Shown here: piece after piece, positions 2,969 through 51,297 of the stretch | Position numbering within the stretch: position 1 is the first letter of the stretch | Layout: each line of letters opens with the position of its first letter | Origin: Stegostoma tigrinum | Taxonomy: Eukaryota | NCBI RefSeq assembly: GCF_030684315.1 | Contig: NC_081367.1 | Span: forward strand, 44,303,853 to 44,367,852 | Direction of reading: 5' to 3' | DNA length: 64,000 nucleotides | The notes under the pieces: model-generated | The model's database searches: none | Seen by the model: only the letters and a program-made list of their open reading frames with translations | Told to the model about the DNA's origin: nothing | Translations under genes and position numbers: made by a program

Positions 2969-4440
2969 TAGAGTCATAGAATCATAAGGGTTTGTTTCCT
3001 TGCTGTGCCTCTATGTCCAACCAGCCCATGCTGAACATGACCACAAACTAAATTAGTTCCACCTGCCTGTGCTTGGCCCGTATCCCTCTAAACCTTTCTT
3101 ATTCATGTACTTAGCCAAATGTCTTTTAAATGTTGAAATTATACCTGTATCCATTACTTCCTCTGGAAGTTCATTCCACGCACAAACCCCTCTCTAGTTT
3201 TAAAAAAAAGTTGCCCCTCATGATTTAAAAAAAAACTTTCTCCTCTCACCTTAAAAATATGCCTCCTAACCTCAAAATCCCATCTGCCAAAATCCCATCT
3301 GCCATTCACCTTATCTGTGCCACCCATGATTTTATGAGCGTTAGTAAGGTCACCCCTCAACCTCCTATGATCCAGTGAAAAAGCTCCAGCCTCTCCTTTA
3401 TAACTCAAACCCTCCATTCCCAGTAACATCCTGGTAAATCTTTTCTGAACCCCGTCTAGCTTAATAATTTCATTCCTGTAACTGGAGAACCGAACTGGAC
3501 ACAGTATTCCCCAGAAGAGGCCTCATCAACATCCTGTACAACCTCAACATGATGTACCAACTCTGATAATCAAAGGTCTGAGCAATGAAGACAAGTGTGC
3601 TAAATGCCGCCTTAACTACCCTGACTGCACGTGATGCAAACTTCATCAGAACCTCTAGGCCTCTTTGTTCTACAACATGACCCAAGACTCCCGTTTTAAT
3701 TGTATAAGTCCTGCCCTTGTTTGTTTTACCAAAAAGTGATGCCAAGCATTTATCCAAATTAAATGCCATCTGCCACTCCTCAGCCCATTGACCCAATTGA
3801 TCAAGATCTCTTTGCAATCTTTGATTATCTTCTTCATTGTCCACTATACCACCAATTTTGGTATCTGTAAACTTACTAACCATGTCTTCCATATTCTCAT
3901 CTAAATCATTTATATGACAACAAAAGTAGACTCAGCACTGATCTCTGTAGAGCACCGCTGGTAACAGTCCTCCAATTGGAACAACAACCTTCCACCAACT
4001 CTTTGTCTCGTGCTGTGAAGCCAATTTTGTATCCAGGTTCACCGTGGATCCAAGTGGTCTCACTTTACTAATTGGTGTTCCAGGCAGAACTTTGTCAAAG
4101 GTTTTAGTAAAGTCCAAGTAAACAAAGTCCAATGCTCTGCCCTCATCAGTCTTCTTGGTTACTTACTCAAAAAACTCAATCAAGTTTGTGAGACACCATT
4201 TCCCTCTCACAAAACCGTGCTGACTATCCCTAATCATTCCTTGCCTCTCCAAGTGCCTGTAAATCATATCGTTCAGAATCATCTCCATCAACATACTGAC
4301 CATCTAAGTCAGACTCCCATGTCTATAGTTCCAAGCTTCTCCTTACTGCCTTCCTTAAATAAAGGCACAACATTAGCCACTCTCCAGTCATCTGGCACCT
4401 CACTCGTAATTATAGATGAACAAATATTTCTACCCCACAA
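2969..4440 (-). mobile_element. CR1 (HER1-like) LINE, 5'-truncated, decayed RT
   Basis: Minus-strand ORF fragments DFVYLDFTKTFDKV, SKFTDTKIGG..LQRDLDQLGQWAEEWQM.FN and RRLRGDL; microsatellite-like 3' tail near 2970. Confidence 0.9.
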
Positions 4441-6705: not shown

Positions 6706-7603
6706 TGCTTTGTGTTTGACAGAGCAGGAGACCCATTTGTGACCTAAACAACTTAAATACCCATTCATCTTTATTGTAAAACCTAAAGTAAAAGCCTGCA
6801 TTGGATCCTTTACCCATATCTCTTCAGTTTTACATAGGCTGCATTGTTGGAAATTGGCTCCATTTTGAAAGATTATTTACACCTGACTTAAATTTGTTAA
6901 TACAAATTGCATCCAATGGCATCTGTGTTTACACCAGCAATATAATGTCATTGATGTCTTACATATTTTCAGGAAAGGCAATGTTTTTGGTGCAAAGTAG
7001 TTTTCTCATTCTTTGGAAACAGTGTATCTATAAAGCACAAAGTAAGTATCAAGTTCTGGATACTTCTGAAGATCGTAGAGACTCTTCTATATTGCAAGGT
7101 TCTTTGAAAGAGCAATGGAGTCCAGTTCTACAACTCCGCTTTCTCCCTGAAACCCTCCAAATTAGTTTTCATGGAATATGCATTCATTTGCCTTTTACAA
7201 GTTCAAAAACAGCCAGGTTCTACTACCATTTCAAATAGTGTAGAATTTAACAACCCTCCATGTGACTTATTTCCTATTCATTTCCAGTCTAGTTTCTTTG
7301 CAATTTTTTAGTACTCATGCGATATGGGTATTGTTGGTTAGGCAAGCATTTTATTACACATCCCTAATTCCCCAAAGGGCAAGTAAGAGTCGACCACATT
7401 GTTCTGGGTCCGGACTCACATGTATTCCAGTCCAGGAAAGGATGGCTGATTCCTTTCCAAATGATATTAGTGAGCCAGATGGAGTTTTTTTTACAACAAT
7501 CAACAGCAGTTTCATGGCTAGTTTTCTATTATTTCTGTTCTTATTGAATTAAAATTTCACCTTTTAACAGGGTAGGATATTTACCTACATCCCCAAATTG
7601 TTA

Positions 7604-44997: not shown

Positions 44998-47230
44998 GGT
45001 CCTTTACAGGCTGTGGGTAATTATCTCATTCTCATCACAAAAAATGTGGACTGAGCAGGTTATGTAAATAGTAGAACATAAATGTACTTAGTACCCAGTA
45101 ATTTCTGAGAAATTGGTGCGCTTAAAATATACTTAGTATATTTGCTGTTTGCATGCTGTACTGCTTTACAAATGAAATGTTCCAACATATCCCCATCAGT
45201 GACATAATCTCAGATATAATTGACTTTTTGGAGTTCTACAAAGTGGCACTAAGTATGATTTTCATCTGCCAGAAGAGCGCTGAGAAGCATCAGCAAGTAG
45301 TCAATCAATTAATGGAGAAATTGGTTGAACTTTACAAGTCCATATGTATTGTTTGCAAATGTAATACAGCACGTCTTTGAAATGTGTGATTTTTGTGGGT
45401 TATAGCCTCTAATGGTTCCACTATCCAGGGTCAATGCAATTAAGTAATTGCAATTTGTCTTACTGTTGCTGAAATGAGTAAACAACATATGTTGTAACTC
45501 TAAAAATAGATAGGCTTTACCAGTTTTTAAATAATTTATCTTTCATAAAATTAGCTGTTTTGCCCACTTAGCCCATTTGCTGAGCATTACAGTACTAGAA
45601 ACATTTACGTCAATGGTGACAACTTATAGGCATCTGGTGTGTTGCATATTGTATAAGCTAGGAACAAAAGGTGCGGTTTTAATAGCAATAGCATGAAACA
45701 AGCAACTCCTAAATTCAAGCTCCATCAAAAAGATTTTCTCCTTTTAAAAGCCATTTTGTTTGACGTTTGTAGGAAGTAGACTTGAATACAAGAGAACCGG
45801 AGGAACCAAGAGTACAACTTAGGAATTTAACCTTTTGCTAAGTTGATTAACATTTAGGACTGGGTAGTTAGTGGGTTGATGGTCAAATAGCAGAAATGCA
45901 AATTCAGCAGATCTTCAATGATGCCAATAACGTAACTGCCTGACATACATTGAAATTAGCGTCCTTATTTACAAAAATATTATCAAATGTTGTAAATTAA
46001 GTTTGAATAAACAACATTTTATAGTCTCATTAAGAACATGATTAGCTATTTGGTCTGTCAAGTCTCCTTTGCCATTAAAGTACACCTTTTGGTGATGTGC
46101 ATGGAACTCCATTTACAGTTGTGTTTGTTCCATTGTACCTCTAGCAACAAAAGTCTGACCTGTCTTGACAGCACCAATGGTCTCATCATCTGTTTTTTAG
46201 GGAAAGAGAATTACACCTCTCCACCTCTGTTTCAAAACAAATCCTGATTTCCCTTTGGGCCTTTGCTGTTATTTTAAGATTATATCTCCCTGATCTTTAT
46301 TAGCTACCCCAGAGTGATTAATTTATCCATATCTGCCAGATCAAATCAGTTTAACATTTGTTTAAAAAGAAAACTCCTCGGAGGTATAGGCACTTATTTT
46401 TACTTCTCAGACCAACACAATACTCGCTGTACTCACCAACGTCCTGTACAACTCAGCATGACATCCCAACTCCTCTACTCAATGGTCTGAACAAAGAAGG
46501 CAACCATATTGAGGGCTTTTGCAAATTTGCAGAATGTATAGTGAGAAATTATTTAATTAGACTACCCATTATGCCCTTCGATTCATCCTATTTCAGCATC
46601 GAGCTTATGCATTGAACAAATGACTCAAGCCATTTTTACAACGTTGCTGGTGAGGCCAATCTTACAGTGTGGGAAACCAATGCAGATATTAGGCAGTGAA
46701 GTTGGATCAGTAGTAGGTAGGAGTTGGTACCCCCAGGGATATTTTCTCATCAGGGACACAGAGGAAAATGGGGAGATAATTTGACTGGTCGATTTCAAAC
46801 GTGAATTTGAGTGAAGGATGGAGCCAATTAAGACAAGGCAATTCCTTCATACTGTAGTGCATTCAAAAATAGCACTTGTATGAGCTACACAATCAGAAAT
46901 ATGCAAGGGATAAGAGGTTGATGAAATACTTAAATTACAGACTTTTAAAAAATGCTCAACTCTAACAAAAGCATATATATTAACTGAAGTAAAAGTGAAT
47001 ATAGGAGGTACAAGTTGGCCGTTTTGGAGTACTGTGTATTTCCTTCCTGTACCGTCCTATAGGAGGGATATTATTAAATTGGAGAGGGTTAAGAAAAGAT
47101 TTACAAGAATGTCTTTGGGATTGGAGGGTATGAGCATATAGCGAGAGGCTGAATAGGCAGGGCTTTTTATTCCCTAGAGCATTGGAGACTGAGGGATGAC
47201 CTATTGGAAGTTTATAAAATTATGAGGGGC

Positions 47231-47413
47231 ATGTGGTGATTGTACCAGCCTCCTCCACTTCCTCTGGCAGCTCATTCCATACACTCACCAACCTCTGCAT
47301 AAAAAGATTACCCCGCAGGTCCCTTTCTTACCTTAAACCCATGTCCTTTGGATTTGAACTCCCCCATCCGAGGAAAAAGACTTTGGCTATTTACCCTATC
47401 TATGCCCCTCATG
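47231..47413 (-). repeat. Inverted duplication of the host flank 48780-48962
   Basis: Colinear reverse complement of equal length (183 bp). Both copies share a private deletion (aaggtaagaaag.gacctg) relative to the CR1 copy at 14310-14345. Confidence 0.92.
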
Positions 47414-48779
47414 GTTTTCAAGAAGATTTGTAGTTCGAGTTGTGGATTTGATTGCAAATGTTTCGTCACCCTGCTAGGTAACGTCGTCAGTATGCCTCTG
47501 GTGAAGCGTCGGTGTTCTGTCCCATTTGTTAATTATATGCCCTTTTGGTGTGGTTGGTGCCCTGGTTTGCAATAAGGACACCACCATAGAACTACAAGAT
47601 CGGTGCTTCACAACACACATGACCTTCAATGACAGCATTGGAATAGCAATGGCATCCACAATATCAGGACTGATTGCAGAAGCAGTAATGCAGAGGTTAG
47701 AATGGACAGCACTTCCTGCTGTACAACCCAAATTTTGGGCCTGATATTAGATGACACCTTTGTGATTACTGAGCGCACAAAACTGGAAGAAACCCACTGA
47801 CACACAAACCACATCCTTGCCAGGATAACATTCATGAAAGAAGAAGAGAACAACGACCGATTACCCTTCCTGGGTGTAATGGTAGAGTGCAAAAGCAACA
47901 GGGAGCTCCAGATTAGCGGGTATAGAATGACTACACATACGGACCAAATACTCAATTACACTAGCAACCACTCCAACACCCACAAATGAAACTGCATCAG
48001 GACACTGTTCAAACAATATTTCGACAACCTGGAACTGAGCAAAGCAGAACAGGAACACTTGTACGAAGTCTTCAAAAGAAATGGCTACCCGAAAAGCACA
48101 ATCTGACGTTATCTCTGAAACAGACCACAACAGGAAGACACAACATGACCAGATTCACTAATCACCCTACCGTACATTAAGGACATTTCAGAGATGACCA
48201 CAAGACTACTCAGACTCCTAGGTATTAGAGTAGCCCACAAACCAACAATCACCCTACGACAGCTCCTGACGAATGTAAAGGATCCTGTACTCAAAACCGG
48301 CACAACTGGTATAATACACAAAATACCATGCAAGGACTGTGAGAAACATTAGGTAGGCCAAACTTGAAGAAAACTGACAATAAGGATACATGAACACCAA
48401 CTAGCCACTTGTCTCAAAACACATGGGCAATGAGGGACACGAATTTGCCTGGGACAGCACATCCATAATCGCACAAGCCAAACAGAGACATACCAGGGAG
48501 TTATTAAAGGCCTGGTATTCCAACCGGAACTCCATCAAGAAACACATTGAATCAGACCCTGTGTACAAACCGCTGAGAAACATGACCAGAAGTAATACCA
48601 ACCTCCCCAGCAAACCAAGGGATATAAATAACAAGCGGGATAAAACACCGATGCTTCACTGGAGATGCACCAACGATGTTACCTAGCAGGGTGGCGAAAC
48701 ATTTGCAACCAAATTCACTGGCTCGGTGAGCATGTCTGCAACCTCATTCATAACCTGAGCTACAAATCTTCTTGAAAAC
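47414..48779 (+). mobile_element. PLE family C: inverted pLTR (47414 to about 47555), then RT and GIY-YIG remnants, pLTR and tail
   Basis: RT remnants AMASTISGLIAEAVMQRLE, (Y)LDDTFVI, EEENNDRLPFLGV and HTDQILNY; EN C-terminus HEFAWDSTSII..RELLKAWYS. TSD atgaggggcat at 47222-47232 and 48781-48791. Confidence 0.93.
47456..47490 (-). ncRNA. Hammerhead-like motif of PLE family C
   Basis: The minus strand reads CTGACGA-C-GTTACC(TAGCAG)GGTGAC-GAAAC-ATT, with a 6-bp stem II. The plus-strand copy at about 48670-48705 has a broken CUGA box (ccaacga). Confidence 0.55.
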
Positions 48780-51297
48780 CATGAGGGGCATAGATAGGGT
48801 AAATAGCCAAAGTCTTTTTCCTCAGATGGGGGAGTTCAAATCTAGAGGACATGGGTTTAAGGTAAGAAAGAGACCTGAAGGGTAATCTTTTTACGCAGAG
48901 GTTGGTGAATGTATGGAATGAGCTGCCAGAGGAAGTAGTGGAGGCTGGTACAATTACAACATTTTAAAAGGCATCTGGCTAGGTGTATGATTCAAAAAGG
49001 TTTAGAGGGATATGGGCCAAATACTGCCAGATGGGACTGAATCAGATGGGGATGTCTGGTCAGCGTGAATGAGTTGGACTGAAGGGTCTGTTTCTGTGCT
49101 GTATGAAACTATTACTCTATTTCCTTCATTTTGGTTTATTCACACTAGCCATTTGCAGTAAATTAAAAGAAATCTTTTCTATGTGTATGCTTTCCATTAT
49201 AATTTTTCATATCAATATTTATAATAGAAACTCTTGATGTACAAATGAACAGGGACATTTATGCTGGATAAACATAGCCAGCTTTATCATTTTTATTACT
49301 GATGAGTATCATGAGCATCATTCAACAGCAGTATGCTACTTGAGTTCTGCATTTCTCAAAGTACTGGAAAGAACCAAATGTTCCACTGTAACCTTTCAGT
49401 GGAAGACATAATAGCATGATGCCGTTCAGTAGCTTCCTTAACATTTTCTGTTTTCTTCTGCGGTTGTTCCCAGGTCTTATGGGTGATGAACACAGCATGA
49501 AGACAAGATCATAAAGCCAACACAATAGGTTCAATCCCCATACTAGCTATCTATGTAGTTCACGGAGACCCGCTTCCTTATCTTACTCTGCGTTTTGGAT
49601 GCCCTCAAACCACATATGTAAACAATTGTTTCTCACTCAAGGGTAGAGGTTCCTTTGTCTACCAAGGCCTCATACTATACAAGCCTAAATCATATCTCTT
49701 GTCAGCTATGTTACAGCATTTTCCAGAATAGCCCACTTCACACTCTGCTCATATAGCAACAGCTTGGCTAGGCGAGTTTGCATGCTGCACCACTTGCAAC
49801 CAATGACCGGATGTTCTAATTCCCTGTTTCTTACGTATTTGTCTGCTATTGATTTTTTGCCAATGACTGGTTTGCCTCATTGCAACCTTTGAGAAAAGCC
49901 TTTTAATTTCCCAACATTCTGGATCAGCAGTGCAAACTCCATATATATTTTACGCATCTACTTTATGGAAGTAGCCACTTACCTGTGTTGCAGTTTCCTT
50001 TTATATTCTTTCCACAATAAAATGTGGCCTGATGATGTATGATTTCCTGTAACAAGCTGGCGTAATTGAGCTAGGAGACTTGTGTGCATAAAACCAATCA
50101 TGAGAACACCTTGCAATCTGACGAGTAGCATTAGCAATTTAGAAGTTTCAGTCTGCTAAAGTTGTAAAATTTCTGACATTATGGAACGTCTTCTGATTAA
50201 GAATGCACGATTAGACTAAATGTTAGCAAATACTGATCTTAACTGTTGGCTCATCATGAGATTTCAGAGAGTTCCAAAGCCTGGCTATGTTAATATTGAT
50301 CACGTGTATATAATGTTTAAACTTCATCACAAGCCTTCCATTTGTAAAACCAATAGAATGACTATTACTGTACAAATCCAGTAAATATCTTGGTGCAATT
50401 ATCTGCTGTAAAAAGCGAAAATTGCTTTTAATTTTTGATAATATTTATAGATCAGTTTGACAAAGAATATTTTGCAGTTTCAATGTGGAATAGAGTGATG
50501 GATATTGGGAGGTATTATTAAATGCAGGATCTCTTTTCCTATGATCTGTTTGCCAATTTTCATCAACTTACAAAAGTCAATGAGCCAGAACCATTTCCGA
50601 ATAACGTACTTCAGTCAAGCATCCTTTTAATGTTTATTTAATGCTCAATGACCTAAGTGAAAGAAGTTAAGTGAAAGAAGTTTGAATTTAAGCCTGTGTA
50701 TCGGTTTTGAGTAAGTTAACAGCCTCAATTTTCACTGCATTGAAGAGCCCCTCTGCAGCAAAAGTTAGAGTGTTAGAAATTCTGCCTCTGAACCATTTTT
50801 ATGTGTGTTTGGGTAATGTGCATTTTGCTAAGGCAGCTGTCCATTTCAATGATCAGCTGCTGGCATTTAAATTGGAGTTTGGAGTGCCTGCACCTGGAAC
50901 CAAGAGTGTGAAGCTGAGGTCAAATCGCAGCAGGCCTGTTCTCAGTACATTTCTCTGGGTAGGCTGGATACTCCTTTGGAAAGCTGAGCCAGCATGGTCA
51001 ATATGATCCCAGGGCGCACAGGGAATGGGATTCAGCGGTACTTTGGGAAAGGATCGGGTTCACATATATTTTGGGGGTTGGATTCAGAGATATTTTGGAA
51101 GGATGATTCATTGTTAACTGTGGAGAAAATTGTGTAAAATGTACATGATCTCTTGGAACCACTGGGAAGGGCCAGCCTATTGAGAAGCGTCTACAATGGG
51201 TCAGGTGCATCAGTCAGCCTAACCTTAAATTGAAGGGCAGGTAATTGATGGTATGGCTGAAGATGTTTAGGCTTAGGACACTGCCCTGGGGAGCTAA

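Follow-up and report, generated by a model that had tools for sequence, protein, structure and literature searches.

A Penelope insertion in Stegostoma tigrinum whose inverted arm continues into a copy of the downstream host flank

The window, which is the whole stretch of 64,000 nucleotides of Stegostoma tigrinum DNA that was analyzed (contig NC_081367.1), contains a host repeat, presumably of the CR1 type, that is interrupted by a Penelope insertion. The parts of the locus are as follows (positions in the window, strand in brackets).

47057..47232 (+): host repeat, portion upstream of the insertion, collinear with sister copies and resuming at 48780-49103
47221..47232 (+): left target-site duplication (TSD), 12 bp, 11/12 matching the right copy (TSDs in the family are about 12 bp long)
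47231..47413 (-): downstream host flank 48780-48962 together with the right TSD, copied in inverted orientation; 12/183 mismatches, 18 common differences and a common 14-bp deletion
47414..47447 (-): the 34-bp Penelope tail (48746-48779) in inverted orientation, 5/34 mismatches
47448..47558 (-): old inverted pseudo-LTR arm (copy of 48597-48712), 21/111 mismatches, with 33 bp missing between arm and tail
47559..47569 (+): 11-nt linker at the arm/forward junction, not seen before 47570 in those sister copies whose sequence extends that far
47570..48590 (+): 5'-truncated, frameshifted ORF remnant with the C-terminal part of the reverse transcriptase (RT) and a GIY-YIG-like endonuclease, based on motifs in the frame as read
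48590..48745 (+): forward pseudo-LTR (start approximate), from an alignment of 30 copies; sister arms begin at its 3' end
48746..48779 (+): forward tail, 34 bp, the 3' end of the element, based on genome matches of the tail pattern
48780..48791 (+): right TSD, from the sequence and the sister host repeats
48780..49103 (+): host repeat, downstream part, of which 48780-48962 is the template of the inverted copy

The decayed frame of the ORF remnant shows DDTF and GIIHKIPC..C...VGQT.R.L..RI.EH, which we take to be motifs of an RT and a GIY-YIG-like endonuclease. An Atlas lead (0.91) connects the remnant with GIY-YIG and HTH_animal clusters, in which 10% of the members carry PF01541 and 18% carry PF26215; Pfam itself yields no match at E ≤ 0.1. 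No Rfam match for a hammerhead ribozyme was obtained on the decayed copy at E ≤ 5, and a phage tblastn search yielded nothing useful. Across the 3.2-Gb genome, the 23-nt tail pattern is matched exactly 446 times, and a control 0 times. The insertion is old: the best identity among scored sisters is 86-87%, with none above 87%, and 13 of the 36 CpG sites are kept, against a median of 24%. Traits of the Penelope family are present in the form of the adjacent inverted pseudo-LTR arm (47448-47558), the 34-bp tail and the TSD (11/12 bp). Endonuclease-bearing Penelope-like insertions are described, in the available text of the sources, as an inverted 5'-truncated copy with a TSD and a one-sided tail of 30-40 bp (PMC3846280; PMC8557442), and the forward remnant, adjacent inverted pseudo-LTR arm, 12-bp TSD and 34-bp tail found here agree with that description. 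In contrast to the published elements, as far as those texts describe them, the tail is found at both ends and the arm runs 183 bp into host DNA.

The layout proposed in the initial annotation is borne out, as 47231-47413 is the reverse complement of 48780-48962 with 0 gaps and 12 mismatches in 183 positions. The inverted repeat had also been described as unbroken through the element/host junction; the match indeed crosses this junction (47413/47414) and continues through the tail, but 34 nt further in a segment of 33 bp (48713-48745) is absent. The full arm is composed of the reverse complement of 48962-48746 followed by that of 48712-48597. Another parse, with the deletion junction at 48724/48757, was rejected as it requires more changes than the parse used. 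The five mismatches of the inverted tail all fall within 48748-48759, with none in 48760-48779, and the inverted pseudo-LTR arm (47448-47558) has no non-CpG change in common with the forward copy. The TSD is ATGAGGGGCAT at 47222-47232 and 48781-48791, or alternatively 12 bp of which one is mismatched. In all six sister copies aligned, the host repeat runs collinearly through the TSD, and the sister host repeats show one TSD copy. The inverted flank copy is thus enclosed by the TSD of the insertion, and inspection of its outer (left) junction confirms that it is joined through an overlap of AT only. At the other end of the arm, the linker at 47559-47569 may be a re-copy of the arm's own reverse complement of 48611-48621, which it resembles.

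The inverted host piece had been attributed to this locus, as opposed to an independent CR1 insertion, and this is supported by comparison with other host-repeat copies (5821 candidates, of which 40 were scored for identity and 28 others were used to build a majority). The two 183-bp copies have 18 differences from this majority in common, together with a deletion of 14 bp. Many of the 18 lie on variable columns and about eight are rare among the other copies. The boundaries of the deletion occur in none of the 28 other copies, and the inverted piece is not closer to any other of the 40 scored copies, the best reaching 84% identity against 93% for the pair. The shared differences and the shared deletion therefore identify this locus as the template, and, with the match across the junction, they uphold the view that the template was DNA in which element and target were already joined and not ordinary element RNA. 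These sequence comparisons support a model in which the flank piece was copied from this locus after the insertion had joined its target. Short-read contigs of organism D, whose reads may be the assembly's own source, agree with 0 differences in each of four segments: 47271-47399 in the left copy, 48794-48924 in the right copy, 47404-47476 across the deletion junction and 47502-47683 across the arm/forward junction. Among the contigs listed, none bridges the outer junction at 47231. Contigs of organism A cover 46700-47080 (20 differences) and 49077-49386 (14 differences), at about 5% divergence, with the inner junctions unbridged among the contigs listed, and those of organisms B and C hold only repeat-like pieces.

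Equal divergence of the host-derived and element-derived parts of the arm had been put forward as the mark of a single event. The divergence is unequal, at 12/183 in the host part versus 26/145 in the Penelope part (Fisher p = 0.0017), and likewise at non-CpG sites (7/173 versus 19/125, Fisher p = 0.0013). From the arm rates by site class, 30-33 differences are expected in the host part, compared to the 12 that are seen (P ~1e-4 or lower), and a change point lies at 48759 (12/203 versus 26/125, permutation p = 0.0015). Taken separately, G/C sites differ strongly (3/78 versus 13/53, p = 0.0006) and A/T sites do not differ significantly (4/95 versus 6/72, p = 0.33). Several controls give the rates at which insertions of this family have aged. 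The TSD pairs of 41 sisters, with a TSD of about 12 bp, have a maximum-likelihood mismatch of 0.17 (interval about 0.14-0.21), and at non-CpG sites the terminal arms of sisters are 15.7% divergent within the ORF and 16.6% within the pseudo-LTR. One out of 38 ORF arm parts lies at or below 6.6% divergence. Thirteen unselected copies of the host repeat show an even rate along 197 columns, without a slow region. Composition or CpG content as the cause of the unequal divergence is rejected by the site-class tests and by the TSD, ORF and host-repeat controls; strand-specific editing of cDNA is rejected as well, as C>T and G>A are found in both arms.

Marginal log-likelihoods were -63.6 for a model in which the whole arm is old, -56.9 for a uniformly young block, -56.4 for a conversion tract and -54.8 for an old tail stub plus a young block. 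Relative to the models with a younger block, the all-old model loses about 7-9 log units and is rejected; the remaining three are not separated by the mismatch pattern. The edges of the block look old, with five differences in the first 14 nt of the copied tail and four in the outermost 26 nt. The flank copy is thus younger than the inverted pseudo-LTR arm, a result that later gene conversion would equally give.

To place the locus within its family, we consider a survey of sister copies that comprises 257 records, representing 256 distinct insertions, from a pool of at least 446 exact tail matches. In 58 records the upstream coverage was only 1.5-1.7 kb, so that distant arms may be missed. 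Arms scoring at least 70 are present in 138 of the 257 records. Of these arms, 100 start at 48738-48756 and are tail-less, 29 are shorter and nine are longer, the nine consisting of three cases of tandem element sequence, five of alignment noise and one distant tail piece. The block added at the present locus ends exactly at this normal arm start of the family, 48746. A scan for arms that extend through the tail into their own flank, as the initial annotation had suggested, found none among the 257 records, and therefore DNA fold-back is not the normal route by which the family obtains its arms. Flank-like matches in L012, L020, L086 and L104 were rejected as a separate palindromic repeat, those in L193, L220 and L196 as dispersed repeats, and L021 and the long arms of L008, L123 and L178 as element sequence in tandem.

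Several old sisters carry inverted element copies that are younger than the insertion, namely L146 (294 bp, 3.7%), L223 (236 bp, 0%) and L289 (833 bp, 0.1%), beside ordinary arms that are 16-21% divergent; none of these young copies is at an arm/TSD edge. The young copy of L289 could also be an assembly effect. L201, with an inverted copy of 201 bp at 8%, is a less clear case. Most of the young inverted pairs in the background scan were discounted as pairs of young repeats. With respect to gene conversion, a tract resembling conversion lies between the ordinary arms of L193 (30/142 versus 16/270), the one clear example among 69 arm pairs. Eight of the 69 pairs have p ≤ 0.025, which is above chance, and weaker conversion tracts may be present in sister arm pairs. 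L137 and L175, with arms at 4-5%, were rejected as cases of conversion, since they look like a younger subfamily. Finally, within the insertion of L234 lies a stretch of unique flank (+102 to +319) in inverted copy, whose divergence is on a par with that of the inverted Penelope piece of L234 (28/214 versus 25/193); this flank copy does not adjoin the tail, and a TSD could not be found for L234.

As the flank copy is far less mutated than the mirror arm, it most likely results from a later slip of DNA repair or copying, and on balance we favor, with modest assurance, an ordinary inverted-arm insertion of which the arm was extended later by homology-guided repair or template switching. In this scenario, the usual insertion would come first, with both cut ends priming on element RNA, and would give the order TSD, tail-less arm, forward copy, tail, TSD. 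Later, at perhaps 30-50% of the age of the insertion, a break or stall would occur at the outer edge of the arm, and the arm end would pair with the forward pseudo-LTR 1.1-1.3 kb away. Synthesis would then pass the end of the homology and proceed through the tail, the TSD and the flank up to 48962, after which the new end would be rejoined to the left TSD via the 2-base overlap; 33 bp of the old arm would be lost at the extension or separately. In favor of this history, the added block is young, it ends at the family arm start, and younger inverted copies are known in sisters. Against it, a single integration event accounts directly for the position of the junction, which coincides exactly with the end of a full-length TSD and retains no clear remnant of the old arm. 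Moreover, the pattern of old edges and a young middle fits conversion, and a homology-guided switch does not by itself need the loss of 33 bp. The surviving junction at the TSD edge would be explained if deeper breaks in the arm are repaired as plain conversion.

The initial annotation had seen in the locus a fold-back or template-switch step of Penelope integration itself. The unequal divergence, the poorer fit of the all-old model and the absence of such arms from the 257 sister records speak against this; an integration-time origin survives only if later gene conversion is added. In that form it is a possible, if doubtful, alternative to later extension: at integration, a cDNA end would copy the pseudo-LTR, the tail, the TSD and 183 bp of flank, with the snapped-back first cDNA end joining the other cut end, and a much later conversion tract would homogenize most of the 217-bp block. 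Such a history accommodates the junction exactly at the TSD end, the tail within the arm, unlike ordinary arms, and the old-looking edges, the best-fit tract being 48760-48936. Snap-back or foldback at insertion is moreover reported, in the available text, for R2 (PMC11371274) and L1 (PMC10191854). The conversion-like tract of L193 (30/142 versus 16/270) and the insertion-age inverted flank piece of L234 (28/214 versus 25/193) indicate that both steps occur in the family, with the reservation that the L234 piece is non-contiguous and that no TSD was found for it. Nevertheless, two rare events are needed (0/257 contiguous flank arms and one clear tract in 69 arm pairs), and the loss of 33 bp ending exactly at the family arm start becomes a coincidence; it is in view of these two rare events and the coincidental deletion edge that, as a matter of judgement, we give later extension the greater weight.

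The single integration event without later change, as first proposed, would be the simplest account of the TSD-bounded layout, the low host divergence then being due to chance or composition, for which the A/T sites alone leave room (p = 0.33). It is nevertheless highly improbable given the log-likelihood of -63.6 versus -54.8 to -56.9, the G/C sites (3/78 versus 13/53, p = 0.0006) and the rates given by the TSD and ORF controls. Slightly less improbable is a later RNA-templated event, in which a read-through transcript of this locus, with tail and flank, served as template for an active Penelope enzyme or for repair, the primer being the end of the left TSD. In its favor, the copy postdates the insertion, its orientation fits priming at the 3' terminus of the left flank as in ordinary arms, and the enzyme is described in the available text as cutting its own pseudo-LTR and both strands in vitro (PMC11167929); however, there is no second TSD, and the start would lie in host sequence, at neither of the family start sites. 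We give hardly any credence to an independent host-repeat insertion beside the arm or to an assembly error. In their favor, the host repeat is very common (5821 candidates), assemblies can be disturbed by inverted Penelope structures according to the available text of PMC8557442, and no contig among those listed bridges the outer junction. Against an independent insertion stand the common deletion, the 18 common differences and the match that crosses the element/host junction; against an assembly error, the two copies are 6.6% apart and both are found with 0 differences in short-read contigs.

In one-sided invasion repair, an inverted repeat is extended by reverse-complement copying and the new end returns via microhomology. 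Later extension of the arm would resemble the local template switching at inverted repeats that is established under a four-point model (Loytynoja and Goldman, 2017; PMC5453318), in that a pre-existing inverted repeat is extended by reverse-complement copying with a microhomology return. In contrast to such switching, which in the available text mostly involves tens of bases, 217 bp are copied here from 1.3-1.7 kb away and the repeat is supplied by a retroelement. For L1, short foldback inversions at the target site are reported for 3+1 events, about 0.4% of somatic insertions, at 52-220 bp (Nam et al., 2023; PMC10191854), and insertions for which nearby genomic DNA served as template have been described (PMC11702581); judged from what is accessible of these sources, the locus, like them, combines a retrotransposon insertion with a short inverted stretch copied from the target DNA, of similar size and similar rarity. 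For R2, cDNA snap-back junctions onto cDNA or target are reported (Zhang et al., 2024; PMC11371274), which is comparable in that a DNA end primes on cDNA or nearby target DNA and leaves antisense sequence at the 5' junction. R2 differs in that, as far as the accessible text goes, the snap-back is seen at insertion in an engineered system, so that a later step is unnecessary. Our literature searches, with most subscription journals outside their scope, returned no paper on a Penelope arm that extends into the host flank.

Under either history the locus is real, rare and of a known kind, and it provides no evidence for routine fold-back in Penelope integration. How Penelope builds its inverted ends is still open in the available text of PMC8557442 and PMC11167929; the locus does not settle this, and the survey bears on the question. 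The Penelope enzyme has two RT start sites, the stretch between which corresponds to the tail (PMC11167929), and the sister arms begin 33 bp before the tail end, as that text would predict. Such a fixed arm start is in keeping with two start sites on the RNA, not with a general rule of DNA fold-back. It is conceivable, as a tentative reading, that the new DNA made during Penelope integration occasionally folds back across its 3' junction, so that downstream host DNA is duplicated within the TSD, the palindrome being refreshed later by conversion. If so, this would happen in well under 1-2% of insertions, with L234 as a second, discontinuous outcome of that step, and Penelope integration would gain a rare host-duplicating product comparable to those of L1 and R2. 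Old inverted arms continue to be remodelled, as seen from younger inverted copies in at least 3 of the 257 records and from a conversion-like tract in one of the 69 arm pairs, and therefore fossils not dated part by part can mislead when they are read as integration intermediates.

Among the loci compared here, the best candidate for capture of host flank at the time of integration is L234, a sister locus of the same Penelope family: an inverted copy of the unique downstream flank lies within the insertion, and its divergence is the same as that of the element's own inverted piece. No TSD was found for this insertion.

Repeats at sister loci (signed coordinates are relative to the tail end; +, downstream flank)
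L234 (G000:C10:101703493-101708993), -963..-746 vs +102..+319, inverted, flank copy
L147, 1965-2029 vs 2800-2864, direct, 65 bp, 100% identity
L216, tail vs +1209..+1235, inverted, 27 bp, 100% identity, spanning the tail junction
L146, 3493-3786 vs 4139-4432, inverted copy of element sequence
L223, -1825..-1590 vs -751..-516, inverted copy of element sequence
L289, -4000..-3168 vs -2489..-1658, inverted copy of element sequence
L193, -1843..-1432 vs -443..-32, ordinary arms
L120, 6165-6364 vs 6719-6918, inverted repeat, 200 bp, 99.5% identical
L006 and L007, G000:C4:30948141-30952985, opposite orientation, identical element 3' ends and flanks

At L147 and L216, the element's own downstream flank holds fully identical copies of short pieces of the old element. 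L146, L223 and L289 are likewise old insertions, containing young inverted element copies (0-3.7% diverged); the L146 copy is bounded by directly duplicated sequence of ~17 bp, and next to the L223 copy lies an insert that arrived later and has a long direct duplication. Between the arms of L193, which are 1 kb apart, divergence falls sharply (from 30/142 to 16/270), a step likely due to gene conversion.

The inverted repeat of L120 had no match in the other fetched loci. The L006/L007 copies, separated by 4.7 kb, may have arisen by inverted duplication in the very recent past or else reflect an artefact of the assembly. A palindromic repeat from a separate family, abundant and often found within or adjoining these insertions (L012, L020, L086, L104, L234), imitates flank copies.

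L137 and L175 share the family tail and have arms diverged by 4-5% and near-perfect TSDs; they appear to belong to a younger Penelope subfamily. In the window insertion, the arm/forward junction carries a templated-looking 11-nt linker (47559-47569), which we take to resemble polymerase-theta-type end joining.
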